From the IMG/VR virus record IMGVR_UViG_2627854098_000006: a DNA stretch of 20,045 bases. One strand, written 5' to 3'. The stretch is from a virus (taxonomy: Duplodnaviria; Heunggongvirae; Uroviricota; Caudoviricetes). Both the position numbers and the translations under genes were made by a program. How positions within the stretch are numbered: the stretch's first letter is position 1; each line of letters starts with the position of its first letter. Positions 5,395 through 20,045 of this stretch are shown here, in pieces. The notes under the pieces are model-generated. The model saw only the letters and a list, made by a program, of their open reading frames with translations, ran no database searches and was not told where the DNA came from.

Positions 5395-5733
5395 TTATAA
5401 TTTGTTACTGTGCCACTCAAGGGCAATATCTTTGAAGGTGTTGTTTAACTGCGTTTCCCGGGCAATCTTTTCCTCTCGCTTCACTTCCATCAGATCGATT
5501 CCCCCAGAGATACCTCTTTTAGCTTCTTCAAGTTTTGCAGGAGCATCAGCTAAGGTGACCTCAGGATACACACCTAGTGCTAACAGCTTCTCTTTACCAG
5601 CTACACGATACTTGAGACGCCAATATTCTCCTCCACCAGGTTTTACCAGGAGGTACAGACCACCACCATCAGCCAACTTGTAAGCCTTCTCTTTTGGCTT
5701 GGCAGTGTCTATTTGACGGGCATTGAGTTTCAC
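5395..5733 (-). pseudogene. P4-type tyrosine integrase, N-terminal fragment (arm-binding domain only)
   Basis: 112-aa ORF (GTG start at 5731-5733) about 90% identical at protein level to residues 1-108 of the intact integrase at 18831-20045; diverges after ...ALEWH and stops; no catalytic domain follows. Confidence 0.8.
5404..5733. repeat. Diverged direct repeat of the integrase 5' region (partner at 19716-20045)
   Basis: Visual alignment of 5404-5733 with 19716-20045 shows colinear identity with scattered substitutions (roughly 90-93%). Confidence 0.8.
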
Positions 5734-5887
5734 TTGGGGGTATCTCCACTAAACTGAACAGCAAATCCCCTCAATTGCTTGTAGAGTTTGGGGTACTTAA
5801 ATAGACGTCAAAAGACTAAAAGGGGCATTAATATACTGATTATAAGAGGTTTTTAAATACTTGAGTAGACTTGGGGAGACGTTAGAA

Positions 5888-5903
5888 TGGTGCGATAATA
5901 GGA
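5888..5903 (-). other. att remnant: 3'-terminal 16 nt of a tRNA-Thr (thrW-like) gene
   Basis: tggtgcgataatagga is the reverse complement of TCCTATTATCG-CACCA, i.e. the acceptor-stem/CCA end of thrW as I recall it (one G missing). Adjacent sequence is not tRNA-like, so this is a core-site copy, not a gene. Lies about 155 bp upstream of the truncated integrase start. Confidence 0.55.
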
Positions 5904-6548
5904 ACAAAACATAAATAACAAACGCATTGATATTTAATGGTATTTTTATATTCCATTTTTATAGATACCCCCAAAAGTACCCCCAACTAATTTTCCATTG
6001 TCCTAAATTGTGCAAAAAAACGACTCTATTGTACTATTTTTCTTCGGGTATCTGCCTCATCAACAATCAATGATGAAGCTGGTGGATGCACACGGGTAAC
6101 ACGTTATTGGAATCCCTATATCGACAGCACGCCCACCAGCGTAACGCATTTTTTTAATTTCGCGGATGTAAAAATTTGACGAGGCGGGTAGTCACGAACA
6201 ACTGGGTTACAGAGATTATACCCGCCACCACCTATGTTGATGAGGGCAATTATTAGTTGATATATCCACGCTCGTTTTCGCTTAATAGCAGAGCGTGCAC
6301 AAAATTTGCATATTTCTATCTGCATTCCTCTATCGACACAGGAATATGAGATAGTGGACATGATGAAACAAATCTGTGCTGACATGTGAACATGTTTTCC
6401 CAGTAGGAATGATCTAAAGCAGTCCATGATGCGGCCCTGAAACGCAGAAGTTATTGAAGCCACTTTAAAATGGAGTAAAAATAGCTTATGGTTACCTTAT
6501 ATATTTAAAGAAAAAATAGGTATTGGAATAGTTTGGTAGAAAAGTTAT

Positions 6549-6589
6549 GACAAAAACTGACAAATAAAAGCCCATAAAAATGAGCTTTT
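6549..6589 (-). terminator. Putative intrinsic terminator after the membrane-protein gene
   Basis: On the minus transcript: AAGCUC-AUUUUUAU-GGGCUU stem-loop overlapping the TAA stop, followed by UUAUUUGUCAGUUUUUG. Confidence 0.4.
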
Positions 6590-17563: not shown

Positions 17564-17761
17564 TCAGGTAGCTGTTCCACGTGATTCCGCAATACGCTGA
17601 TTAATCCACTCGTCAATTTCACTCTCAACGAAAGCAATAGCTCGCGAGCCAATTTTAACTGATGCAGGAAATTTGCCTTGCCCCATAAGGCGATAAATCC
17701 ATGCCTTGCTATATCCAGTTCTACGCTGAACTTCCGTTAAACGAATAAGAGAGTTTGCCAT
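17564..17761 (-). CDS. AlpA-family phage regulatory protein (HTH; Vis/excisionase-like)
   Basis: 65 aa; LTEVQRRTGYSKAWIYRLMGQGKFPASVKIGSRAIAFVESEIDEWI is the AlpA signature. Confidence 0.8.
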   Translation of the reverse strand: MANSLIRLTEVQRRTGYSKAWIYRLMGQGKFPASVKIGSRAIAFVESEIDEWINQRIAESRGTAT

Positions 17762-18015
17762 ATATTCACCTTGTAACGTCTATAAAGGTGTACATAGCTT
17801 GCATTAAGAAAAGTGATATTTATAGATGCTTACCATTATGAATGGCGAATACCATTTCAGTGAAATAGCTCCACCTTTTTTTAATAATGGCGTTTACTAT
17901 TTTAAGTATCATGCTGACGTGAAACACGAAGAAAAATTACTGTTCTTACGATTTAATCTGCATTGGTGGTTACTTTTTTTGAAAGGAAACCACCATTTTT
18001 CTGGAATAGCGACCA

Positions 18016-18732
18016 CTATTTAACTTTTTGTTTTTTTGGTCTTCTACCAATACGCTTCAGATGTTCAGGCCTTAAAATCAGATTCACAGCCCTAGCAACA
18101 TTAGAACCCGCCCCCCTTTTTTTCAAATATTCAAGTACCTCATGCTCTGTCGGAGCCGTCTGTGGGTCATCTGGGTCATACGTCGACCATAGTTCCCTTA
18201 TAGCATCCTGCACATACTCCAACCCATCACTCTTATGCCCATAAGTACACAAATACTCGTCAGGATTAATTACCTGATGAGATGATTCAATGATTGCTGG
18301 CGGATTAACTTCCTTAACAGGTATAGGGCGAGGGCATCTCGCAAAATCAACGCTCTCATTTTTTATCCACTCATATAAAGAATGGCGACTAATTAAAGTT
18401 TTATCCTTGCTTATCTCATATGCACGATCGGTCAGTTGTGCTGATGTCAGACGTTTGTACTCAATATCACAAACATTTCCCCAATTATCGTACTCAACTA
18501 TTTCAGAGGTACATTCAACAGGAGTTAAGACACCACGACGGATGGCTGTTACCATTCCATTAGCCAACCCCCATGCCATTTTCCAACGTTCATGTTTATT
18601 ATCTCTGACATGTTCAAGAGTAGGGTAATCATAAGGATCAATTCCGGCCAACAATAAAGCGGCCTGGGTGATAGAAAACTCCTGTACTGTTCGCCAGTGG
18701 GATAAGTCAGGAATGTTTTCCACAATTGGCAT
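18016..18732 (-). CDS. Hypothetical protein (238 aa) between integrase and alpA
   Basis: ATG at 18730-18732 preceded by AAGGGGGAG (the ORF-track start is 5 codons upstream); basic C-terminal tail RIGRRPKKQKVK; no family recognised. Confidence 0.55.
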   Translation of the reverse strand: MPIVENIPDLSHWRTVQEFSITQAALLLAGIDPYDYPTLEHVRDNKHERWKMAWGLANGMVTAIRRGVLTPVECTSEIVEYDNWGNVCDIEYKRLTSAQLTDRAYEISKDKTLISRHSLYEWIKNESVDFARCPRPIPVKEVNPPAIIESSHQVINPDEYLCTYGHKSDGLEYVQDAIRELWSTYDPDDPQTAPTEHEVLEYLKKRGAGSNVARAVNLILRPEHLKRIGRRPKKQKVK

Positions 18733-18830
18733 ATTCTCCCCCTTCAAGCGGTCTAATGTTAAGGCCGAGCCAGCTCTGTTTGCATCAGCCTTTTTAGGTG
18801 CTCAAAGTCTACTACTGTATACTCAACCAG

Positions 18831-20045
18831 TCACCCGCATTTTCCGAACTCACCATGCACCACATTTCCGCCATGCTCGAGCGAATCCATATAGTCGGCA
18901 TACCACTGGAGCATCTCTCGGCGACCATCCAGATATTGCGCATGGTTGTATGTGCCACGAATTGAGTTTTTATCGACGTGTGCGAGCTGTGTCTCTATCC
19001 ACGCGGTGTTATAGCCCTGCTCATGCAAAATGGTGCTCATGGTGTGCCGGAATCCATGACCAGTAACCTTTCCGTTATAGCCGATGCGTTTAAATACTTG
19101 GTTTATGCTAGCCTCGCTCATTGTTTTCCTTGGATCATTACGGCCGGGAAACATAAGCGGATAATTGCCAGTTAATTCTTTAATCTGCCCAATAAGCGAA
19201 AGAGCCTGCTTAGACAAAGGCACCACATGAGGGCGACGCATTTTCATCCGTGAAGCAGGTATCTCCCAGATAGCCTTGTTGAGATCGATTTCATCCCATA
19301 ATGCACCGCGCAGTTCGCCAGTCCGCAAACCGGTGATAATCAGTAGACGAGCCGCCATAACAACCAATGCACTTCCTGAGTAACTGGACAATGCCTTGAA
19401 AAAATCAGGTAATTCTTTGGCTGTGAGGAAAGGATAATGATTAGATTCATGACCTTGCATCGCGCTGGTGAGATCCGGTGCAGGGTTATACTCAGCACGT
19501 CCAGTGACAATTGCATAGCGGAAAACTTCCCCGCATCGCTGCCTCACTTTTTTGGCTTTTTCGGTAGCACCGCGCCCCTCGATGCGCCGCAGCACATTCA
19601 GCAGTTCAAGTGGTTTGATTTCGGTGATTGGTTTTTTGCCAATGTAAGGGAACACATCTTTATTGAAGGCTTCGAGGATGTCTGAAGCATAACCAGCAGA
19701 CCATTTTTTTAATTTGCTGCAGTGCCACTCAAGGGCAATATCTTTGAAGGTGTTGTTTAACTGCGTTTTCCGGGCAATCTTTTCCTCTCGTTTCGCTTCC
19801 ATCGGATCGATACCCCCAGCGATACCCCTTTTAGCTTCTTCACGTTTTGCACGAGCATCAGCCAAGGTAACTTCAGGATACACACCTAGTGCTAACAGCT
19901 TCTCTTTACCAGCTACACGATACTTGAAGCGCCAATATTTTCCTCCACTAGGTTTTACCAAGAGATACAGACCACCACCATCAGCCAGCTTGTAAGCCTT
20001 CTCTTTTGGCTTGGCAGTGTCTATTTGACGGGCATTGAGTTTCAC
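18831..20045 (-). CDS. P4-type tyrosine integrase (site-specific recombinase), intact
   Basis: 404 aa, GTG start at 20043-20045 (window edge); N-terminal arm-binding domain MKLNARQIDTAKPKEKAYKLADGGGLYLLVKP...; C-terminal catalytic region with RHT...HxxR...Y-type residues (GFRHTMSTILHEQG...IRGTYNHAQY). Confidence 0.85.
   Translation of the reverse strand: MKLNARQIDTAKPKEKAYKLADGGGLYLLVKPSGGKYWRFKYRVAGKEKLLALGVYPEVTLADARAKREEAKRGIAGGIDPMEAKREEKIARKTQLNNTFKDIALEWHCSKLKKWSAGYASDILEAFNKDVFPYIGKKPITEIKPLELLNVLRRIEGRGATEKAKKVRQRCGEVFRYAIVTGRAEYNPAPDLTSAMQGHESNHYPFLTAKELPDFFKALSSYSGSALVVMAARLLIITGLRTGELRGALWDEIDLNKAIWEIPASRMKMRRPHVVPLSKQALSLIGQIKELTGNYPLMFPGRNDPRKTMSEASINQVFKRIGYNGKVTGHGFRHTMSTILHEQGYNTAWIETQLAHVDKNSIRGTYNHAQYLDGRREMLQWYADYMDSLEHGGNVVHGEFGKCG

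Follow-up and report, generated by a model that had tools for sequence, protein, structure and literature searches.

The stretch of DNA analysed here, a window of 20,045 nucleotides (nt) filed as virus record IMGVR_UViG_2627854098_000006, carries a remnant of the vat island of Escherichia coli (vat encodes the vacuolating autotransporter toxin) and, between this remnant and the tRNA-Thr gene thrW, an integrase-bearing element of 14,325 bp. The source genome is that of the avian-pathogenic E. coli (APEC) strain IMT5155, to whose chromosome (NZ_CP005930.1) the window is 100% identical. Strain DE17 is likewise 100% identical over window positions 4300-6700, the junction region that was searched, and the exact element was carried by IMT5155 and DE17 only.

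The thrW locus and its repeated integrase module

The 42 kb around the window were taken as locus L001, in which a coordinate equals the window coordinate plus 15,701. Read in the orientation of the window, the annotation gives yagU, a small integrase fragment, a copy of the IS66-family insertion sequence (IS) ISCro1, vat without its N-terminus, a MarR-family gene, a pseudogene labelled 'Arm DNA-binding domain', about 14 kb of mostly minus-strand genes up to a full integrase, and finally tRNA-Thr, proA and proB. The last position of the window coincides with the GTG start of the intact integrase. ARAGORN found no tRNA gene in the window itself; in the source genome it placed tRNA-Thr(CGT), that is thrW, 167 nt beyond the window end (position 20045), with proA and proB coming next. 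A sequence-only reading of the window had predicted a tRNA-Thr gene beyond position 20045 and had tied its fate to the presence of that gene; with intact thrW found past the window end, this ground for doubt is removed.

The 5′ part of the integrase gene is present twice, as the same reading had observed. Positions 5404-5733 and 19716-20045 align without gaps and with 22 mismatches in 330 nt (93.3% identity), and the encoded proteins match in 101 of 112 residues, the 11 differences being essentially those counted before over 108 residues. Being 7% diverged, the copies do not represent a recent duplication, again as had been proposed. The copy next to the vat island is truncated, and its stop codon coincides with the end of the homology at about position 5395. 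On the other side the homology reaches past the start codons: positions 5734-5887 (154 nt) correspond to the 166 nt beyond the window end, with 143 identical positions and one 12-nt indel. The whole repeat block, which comprises the 5′ end of the integrase gene, the integrase-proximal attachment (att) arm or P arm, and the entry into the tRNA 3′ end, yields 467 identical positions in 513 aligned columns, and these approximately 500 nt, including the core, have the same order and orientation at both junctions. The P arm of the intact integrase together with thrW takes up the window-equivalent positions 20046-20287.

Between the old P arm and the 14.3-kb element lies a displaced copy of the thrW 3′ end. 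On the window plus strand (reverse complement) this 3′ end reads TGGTGCCGATAATAGGA, and positions 5888-5903 read TGGTGCGATAATAGGA, which is the same sequence minus one C. The copy is located 154 nt from the start codon of the truncated integrase, compared to about 155 bp in the sequence-only reading. As the 16-mer occupies the homologous position inside the homology block of about 500 nt, it is not a chance match, and the worry raised earlier that it might turn out spurious against the true thrW sequence could be dismissed; the alignment of both att copies, suggested at that time as a check, runs through the P arm into the core. The core corresponds to the final 17 nt of thrW including CCA, and target and domain composition (three integrase domains, Table 1) together are those of a P4-family integrase directed at tRNA 3′ ends.

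The att arms share a further feature. Six copies of the 9-mer TACCCCCAA are present in 42.4 kb, compared to an expectation of 0.29, and every one of them lies inside an att arm. Two tandem copies are located in the integrase-distal (P′) arm of the 14.3-kb element (5966-5974 and 5978-5986); its integrase-proximal arm has two more in tandem and an inverted one, and the old arm retains a single copy (5734-5742), the 12-nt deletion having removed one of two tandem repeats. The repeats of both att arms are plausible candidates for arm-type sites bound by the N-terminal domain of the integrase. A 23-nt match to the P arm at 5318-5340, left of the truncated integrase, was considered as a third, older att remnant; it was rejected as chance, with a score of 26 compared to scores of up to 30 for shuffled sequences.

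Separability of the two halves

A predicted pre-insertion junction was built synthetically by joining window positions 4900-5887 to thrW/proA with the full core. This empty site matched 331 complete E. coli genomes over all 1476 nt, and the best 30 of the 331 matches, including ATCC 11775, S88, IHE3034, APEC O18 and PMV-1, were all 100% identical in a single piece. The 14.3-kb half was encountered by itself in strain N921, which has no vat island: the K-12-type flank (paoC, paoD and a yagP fragment) is kept, and a close relative of the element is present at thrW with its integrase beside the tRNA. This relative aligns with 10,524 of the 14,325 nt at 84-99% identity and shares the DUF4747 cargo, the P′ arm and the core. 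Of 5,426 E. coli genomes, about 2,400 contained mosaic relatives in which primase types and cargo are swapped, with as many as six places in a single genome.

The presence of the empty site in 331 genomes and of a solo relative in N921 lends good support to tandem site-specific accretion. The two parts are co-oriented, each with an integrase or an integrase remnant, a core copy lies between them, and each part is found separately elsewhere, as is characteristic of a tandem array. We therefore consider it very probable that two integrative elements are stacked at the tRNA-Thr(CGU) gene thrW, a remnant of the vat island and a satellite of the phage-inducible chromosomal island (PICI) type that was added later by site-specific integration. 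This was also the central inference of the sequence-only reading, namely two integrase-bearing elements at thrW, the newer one next to the tRNA gene and a copy of the tRNA 3′ end in between, and it is borne out by thrW lying where predicted and by the pre-insertion junction in 331 genomes. That integrative elements stack at a single tRNA gene is well known.

A corresponding arrangement has been described for E. coli MP1, in which the PICI EcCIMP1 is inserted in tRNA-Thr between proA and yagU, beside an island of about 7 kb that contains MarR as well as pseudogenes for Vat and for an integrase (PMC11773190; ISME J 2025). EcCIMP1 excises, circularises and is transduced by the helper phage Kapi1, for which int and alpA are required; for the adjoining island PCR detected no excision or circularisation (PMC11773190). 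Judging from the MP1 annotation, MP1 and IMT5155 have in common the slot, the stacking order, vat, the IS, the identical 112-codon integrase fragment, the shortened distal core and the identical MarR protein (WP_001059463.1), which is also the same in MS8345, APEC O1 and G12. Hence the structure is an ordinary one for E. coli tRNA hot spots and its architecture is already published for MP1, the specific 14.3-kb satellite of IMT5155 being a previously undescribed mosaic member of a published family.

In the course of events that we propose, the older element, the vat island, would now be an immobile remnant consisting of vat cut by the IS66-family element, the MarR-type gene, and what is left of a P4-family integrase (the first 112 codons) together with the adjoining att arm. 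The newer 14,325-bp PICI would have entered by integrase-mediated recombination of its attP with the thrW 3′ end, which at the time of entry would have adjoined the arm of the old integrase. As an outcome, an intact thrW would have been left beside the new integrase, and the tRNA 3′-end copy together with the whole vat island would have been displaced by 14.3 kb. By analogy with EcCIMP1, excision would be activated by AlpA and require the integrase, replication would be driven by the primase, and packaging would depend on a helper phage; the satellite is presumably still mobilisable.

The older literature treats the APEC thrW-vat region as one island of about 20-22 kb, according to table entries citing Parreira and Gyles (2003). 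The region would then be one composite 'VAT pathogenicity island' extending from thrW to yagU, with the second integrase fragment originating from an internal duplication by homologous or illegitimate recombination. This appears extremely improbable, as the vat half alone adjoins thrW in the 331 genomes and the satellite half alone occupies thrW in N921, the boundary between the halves is exactly the tRNA-derived core, the integrase copies are 7% diverged, and in MP1 the PICI half excises alone (PMC11773190).

Several observations nevertheless weigh against the accretion of a PICI onto an integrase-borne island. According to the NCBI Prokaryotic Genome Annotation Pipeline (PGAP), the ProQ/FinO gene (10344-10874) and a small open reading frame (ORF; 11318-11575) of the satellite are frameshifted, suggesting some decay of the element, and its excision and packaging we infer by analogy. 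No lambda-type cosN was found within two mismatches. Apart from AlpA, part of antA and the int/att module, there is hardly anything that the element has in common with EcCIMP1 (2,125 of 14,325 nt align). Simple displacement alone does not account for the one base that the core remnant lacks. Finally, the vat island has no detectable distal att copy: a third core copy at its far end was not found within three mismatches in 42 kb, nor was there a local alignment to thrW near yagU. Therefore, it is the integrase fragment and its arm that argue for an integrase-borne origin of the vat island.

Beside yagU, outside the window, a third integrase fragment was noticed on the opposite strand (L001 13377-13520; C-terminal motif RYAHLAPNHL). 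Its family is a different one, with no relationship to the P4-type integrases or to K-12 IntF. It was considered as the missing C-terminus of the truncated integrase, or as a relative of IntF (CP4-6), and was discarded because it shows similarity to neither. As no tRNA-derived core copy is present near this fragment, the far boundary of the vat island appears to be eroded.

The order of events differs from the one first proposed. The sequence-only reading had the satellite join an island with a still intact integrase, which was 'then deleted beyond codon 112'. The identical 112-codon pseudogene is located directly beside intact thrW in the 331 genomes without a second element, and it was found next to different occupants in three further strains: the very different PICI EcCIMP1 in MP1, a 12-kb element with a distal integrase and genes for major capsid and baseplate in APEC O1 (L127 14279-26609), and a lambdoid prophage carrying Avs2 in G12 (L128 14279 onward). 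A full-length copy of the truncated allele beside vat was detected in none of the annotated matches. Since the identical pseudogene occurs without an occupant or with unrelated ones, the truncation is a fixed, shared feature of the vat island, and it is the occupant of thrW that varies. Precise excision of the satellite after a later truncation would also recreate an 'empty' junction; we nevertheless rate this order as improbable in view of the 331 unoccupied genomes, the differing occupants and the lack of a full-length allele in the annotated matches. One old truncation followed by turnover of the thrW occupants is the far more economical reading of these sequences. The old arm was found at ≥95% identity in about 500 genomes, approximately two-thirds of which are unoccupied, and 60 of those genomes contain the IMT5155-type distal arm.

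The so-called single 'VAT pathogenicity island' at thrW in fact consists of a fixed, immobile toxin-gene remnant and an exchangeable slot, which in about one-third of the vat-positive E. coli is occupied by a prophage or phage satellite that brings its own cargo, in many cases anti-phage genes. The value of this distinction lies mostly in annotation, as separating the parts matters for island typing in extraintestinal pathogenic E. coli (ExPEC) and APEC and for predicting what is movable (the satellite with its cargo) and what is not (vat). The VAT pathogenicity island at thrW (PAI-APECO1-thrW in PMC7545054) corresponds to the left half described here, with vat and a MarR-type regulator beside thrW. 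It differs in that vat of IMT5155 is 5′-truncated by ISCro1 and a separable satellite lies between island and thrW, whereas the APEC O1 slot holds the 12-kb element. In reviews thrW counts among the most used targets in tDNA, and vat-carrying thrW islands are listed for APEC O1, UM146 and 536.

In IMT5155 the ISCro1 copy, whose tnpA is located at positions 1-678, has taken the place of the first 510 nt of vat, the part that encodes the signal peptide and the beginning of the protease domain. Consistently, the Peptidase_S6 match of the product begins at profile position 148, the Autotransporter beta-domain is present, and PGAP reports a 'missing N-terminus'. Compared to vat of APEC O1, a 42-nt in-frame difference is present near the 3′ end.

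Gene content and kinship of the 14.3-kb element

The features of both halves are compiled in Table 1. From the tRNA side, the element encodes the integrase, a 243-amino-acid (aa) protein, AlpA, an AntA/AntB antirepressor, an Icd-like protein, small PHROG-family proteins and a DUF4222 protein, followed towards the distal arm by a 604-aa primase, ProQ/FinO, PerC, a helix-turn-helix (HTH) protein and a DUF4747 protein with a 199-aa partner.

Table 1: Features of the vat-island remnant, the PICI-type satellite and the attachment sites (window coordinates unless a locus is named).
Feature	Position	Strand	Evidence and remarks
vat (vacuolating autotransporter toxin), 5′-truncated pseudogene, cargo of older island	732-4310	plus	99.9% to nt 511-4131 of intact APEC O1 vat
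MarR-family regulator gene downstream of vat, older island	4466-4960	plus	Pfam MarR/MarR_2
Truncated integrase of older island, 112 codons + stop, arm-binding domain only	5395-5733	minus	Pfam Arm-DNA-bind_3 E = 9e-24; PGAP pseudogene 'missing C-terminus'; protein identical in MP1
Integrase-proximal att arm (P arm) of older island, decayed	5734-5887		143 identical positions vs 166-nt arm of intact copy; 12-nt deletion
Displaced copy of thrW 3′ end (att core remnant)	5888-5903		reads TGGTGCGATAATAGGA; one C fewer than tRNA sequence
Shortened core copies	5888-5903; L002 9589-9604; L003 9203-9218; L004 2985-3000		
Integrase-distal att arm (P′ arm) of PICI	5904-6035		kept in relatives whose cargo differs
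Variable cargo slot: 199-aa protein + DUF4747 protein	6588-8080	minus	Pfam DUF4747 E = 9.5e-98
178-aa protein, N-terminal HTH	8886-9422	minus	Pfam HTH_17 E = 2e-4; PHROG 57 (terminase small subunit) E = 1.7e-6
PerC-family regulator	10060-10347	minus	Pfam PerC E = 5e-32; PGAP
ProQ/FinO-family gene	10344-10874	minus	Pfam ProQ E = 1.2e-24; frameshifted per PGAP
Replication gene, D5_N / DUF5906 / Pox_D5 primase-helicase, 604 aa	12103-13917	minus	Pfam; PHROG 864 DNA primase E = 1e-196
Icd-like cell-division inhibitor gene	15155-15376	minus	NCBIfam phage_ICD_like E = 2e-21; PGAP
AntA/AntB-type antirepressor gene	16686-17486	minus	Pfam AntA E = 4e-22; PHROG anti-repressor
alpA, AlpA-family regulator/excisionase	17564-17761	minus	co-oriented downstream of int; Pfam Phage_AlpA E = 2.4e-19
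Intact thrW-specific tyrosine integrase of PICI, 404 aa	18831-20045	minus	Pfam Arm-DNA-bind_3 E = 1e-33, Phage_int_M E = 3.6e-29, Phage_integrase E = 4.9e-26

About 28 ORFs were scanned with Pfam, most of them also with PHROGs. No capsid, tail or lysis genes were found in these scans of the element, the sole structural-type match being a weak similarity of the HTH protein to the small terminase subunit (TerS), and homologues of Psu, Sid, Delta/Ogr and Epsilon were equally not detected. Gram-negative PICIs have been characterized by int, a co-oriented alpA, a primase and accessory genes at the far end, a size of about 15 kb and the lack of structural genes (PMC6092414). In the element studied here the integrase is located at one end beside the attachment site, 167 nt from thrW, with a co-oriented alpA just downstream, where PMC6092414 and PMC11773190 also place it, and with a replication module of its own, as judged from the 604-aa primase. 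The size of 14,325 bp falls into the range of about 10-20 kb, and the core at both ends, the empty site and the solo copy in N921 mark a discrete unit with a specific att site. By its gene set the 14,325-bp element is thus a PICI-type phage satellite rather than P4.

The sequence-only reading had called the element P4-like. This label holds for the integrase with its Arm-DNA-bind_3, Phage_int_M and Phage_integrase domains but not for the rest of the element, the gene set of which is that of a Gram-negative PICI. A genuine P4-type satellite depending on a P2-like helper could be suspected from the P4-family architecture of the integrase and from the AlpA/Vis-like and Icd-like genes and the D5-type primase, each of which has a P4 counterpart; P4 also resembles the element in targeting tRNA 3′ ends. 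In favour of it, too, the authors who described the PICIs consider Int, AlpA and Pri-Rep distantly homologous to P4 proteins (PMC6092414). Against it, the primase of the element has 604 aa, and AntA and PerC are typical of PICIs. In comparison to P4, sid, psu, delta and epsilon were lacking in the scans made, and the whole element gave no DNA match in a phage collection and no DNA similarity to P4. An Rfam search over the whole window returned no family at gathering score, the existence of an Rfam model for the P4 CI RNA not being confirmed. Taken together, a P4-type satellite is very improbable.

Among known PICIs, those of the EcCICFT073 type (PMC6092414) resemble the IMT5155 element in the terminal integrase, the co-oriented alpA, a primase-type gene, the lack of structural and lysis genes, the size of about 15 kb and the distal accessory genes, and differ from it in that the search made revealed no lambda/phi80-type cosN in IMT5155. 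The integrases of EcCIMP1 and of the IMT5155 element are 95.8% identical, the AlpA proteins share 51 identical positions in a 67-column alignment, and both elements carry AntA, Icd-like and PerC genes. EcCIMP1 differs in its size of 19,963 bp, P22-like ejection and virion genes, a TOPRIM/DUF927 primase and a second alpA, whereas the 14,325-bp IMT5155 element possesses the D5-type primase, ProQ and the DUF4747 cargo pair; about 2.1 kb of DNA align. Mobility is proven for EcCIMP1, whereas the IMT5155 element is known here from its sequence.

The 178-aa HTH protein shows weak similarity to TerS and to excisionase HTH domains, and its PHROG 57 match is limited to the N-terminal 45 residues. It is possibly a packaging-redirection factor or a second excision factor of the satellite.

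The slot beside the distal att arm of the satellite is a hot spot for cargo. In IMT5155 and N921 it contains the DUF4747 protein and its 199-aa partner, in MS8345 a HEPN-like nuclease, DUF262 and a methyltransferase (L002 9969-13067), and in other relatives GapS1. PADLOC applied to the cargo and the unknown ORFs yielded only a sub-threshold HTH match, and none for the DUF4747 pair. On account of the missing PADLOC match and the position in the cargo hot spot, the pair is a candidate for an uncharacterised defence pair.

A stop-free frame of 520 codons was further noticed on the minus strand (15155-16693), ending in the Icd-like gene. Family matches are confined to its last ~50 residues, the translation of the remainder being of low complexity. 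Over the same 1.3 kb, each of the other five frames is interrupted by 13-29 stops. The frame is open for 428 codons in the N921 relative and for 120 in MP1, and a plus-strand YlcI/YnfO gene (15708-16013) is nested within it.

The one-base-short core

The base missing from the displaced core of IMT5155 is missing elsewhere, too. The shortened distal core, TGGTG-CGATAATAGGA, was found beside the P′ arm of the satellite in IMT5155, MS8345, MP1 and N921 and thereby on two unrelated flanks, that of N921 being the native one (positions in Table 1). One C is absent from the displaced thrW core in every satellite-type E. coli junction examined and in the majority of such junctions in Enterobacterales at large; other element types on the same flanks (K-12 CP4-6, APEC O1 and G12) keep CC intact. 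CP4-6, a cryptic prophage of K-12, resembles the satellite in using thrW as target and in the displaced tRNA fragment at its far end. It differs in that this fragment comprises 49 nt from the anticodon loop with an intact 3′ end and in having its integrase at the far end, whereas the satellite family leaves the last 16-17 nt.

In a scan of species-representative genomes, the short form was present in about 45 species of Enterobacterales, mostly followed by a P′-type arm with tandem repeats of the kinds TACCCCCA..., TGCCCCC... and CTATACAC.... Metagenome contigs with such arms showed short and intact cores at approximately 63 to 7. In a sample unbiased on this position (46 junctions), 27 cores were short, 4 short with a substitution, 6 intact and 9 otherwise decayed, and across unbiased or semi-biased samples the ratio of short to intact ranged from about 4.5:1 to 9:1. 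The same deletion also occurs within full-length thrW genes, namely in Citrobacter murliniae, a Buttiauxella metagenome-assembled genome and Klebsiella spallanzanii (L014, L020 and L023) as well as in two E. coli strains in which thrW adjoins the truncated integrase, SCU-176 (L315 1789-1863) and VTB96815v (NZ_CP178648). In these genes, which are 74-75 nt long, it is the 3′ strand of the acceptor that lacks the base, and either scars of excision or errors in sequencing could be the cause.

We tentatively suggest, and regard as possible but doubtful, that the one-base deletion is not random decay but a recurrent hallmark of thrW-targeting satellites with integrases of this clade. Two mechanisms may be envisaged. 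In the first, the attP of the satellite would itself lack the base, and strand exchange would take place on the CCA side, in the shared GCACCATT block, and not in the published core; for EcCIMP1 the flanking repeats TCCTATTATC were proposed as core (PMC11773190), which is the reverse complement of GATAATAGGA. The attP would then read ...GAATGGTG-CGATAATAGGAACA with one C, and the restored thrW would be intact. In the second, exchange would take place in TCCTATTATCG, and through the action of the integrase the displaced copy would repeatedly lose one base at the cleavage-site edge. Excision would then hand the defect to thrW, as in the two E. coli genomes and the three other species, and loss of the satellite would be costly. 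If mechanistic, the shortened core would reveal where a large clade of tRNA-targeting integrases exchanges strands, and it could show how satellites get locked in place.

Other explanations were considered and discarded. Strict linkage of the deletion to the flank, or to the P′ arm, is contradicted by the finding that one flank or P′ arm occurs with either state, and a heteroduplex model fails to account for the dominance of the deletion, which under such a model should be lost over cycles. A circular, virion-derived attP was not found in IMG/VR, where all informative contigs looked integrated or tandem.

In many of the junctions the opposite side is formed by an older integrase arm, so that elements stacked in tandem at thrW are frequent throughout the Enterobacterales. 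The thrW-targeting elements fall into at least three families (loci L011-L126 and L129-L314), which have the core in common and differ in the tandem repeats about 60-85 nt into the distal arm. These repeats read TACCCCCAAAAGTACCCCCA, (A/G)TGCCCCCTTTT(A/G)TGCCCCCA and CTATACACATNNCTATACACAT in the three families.

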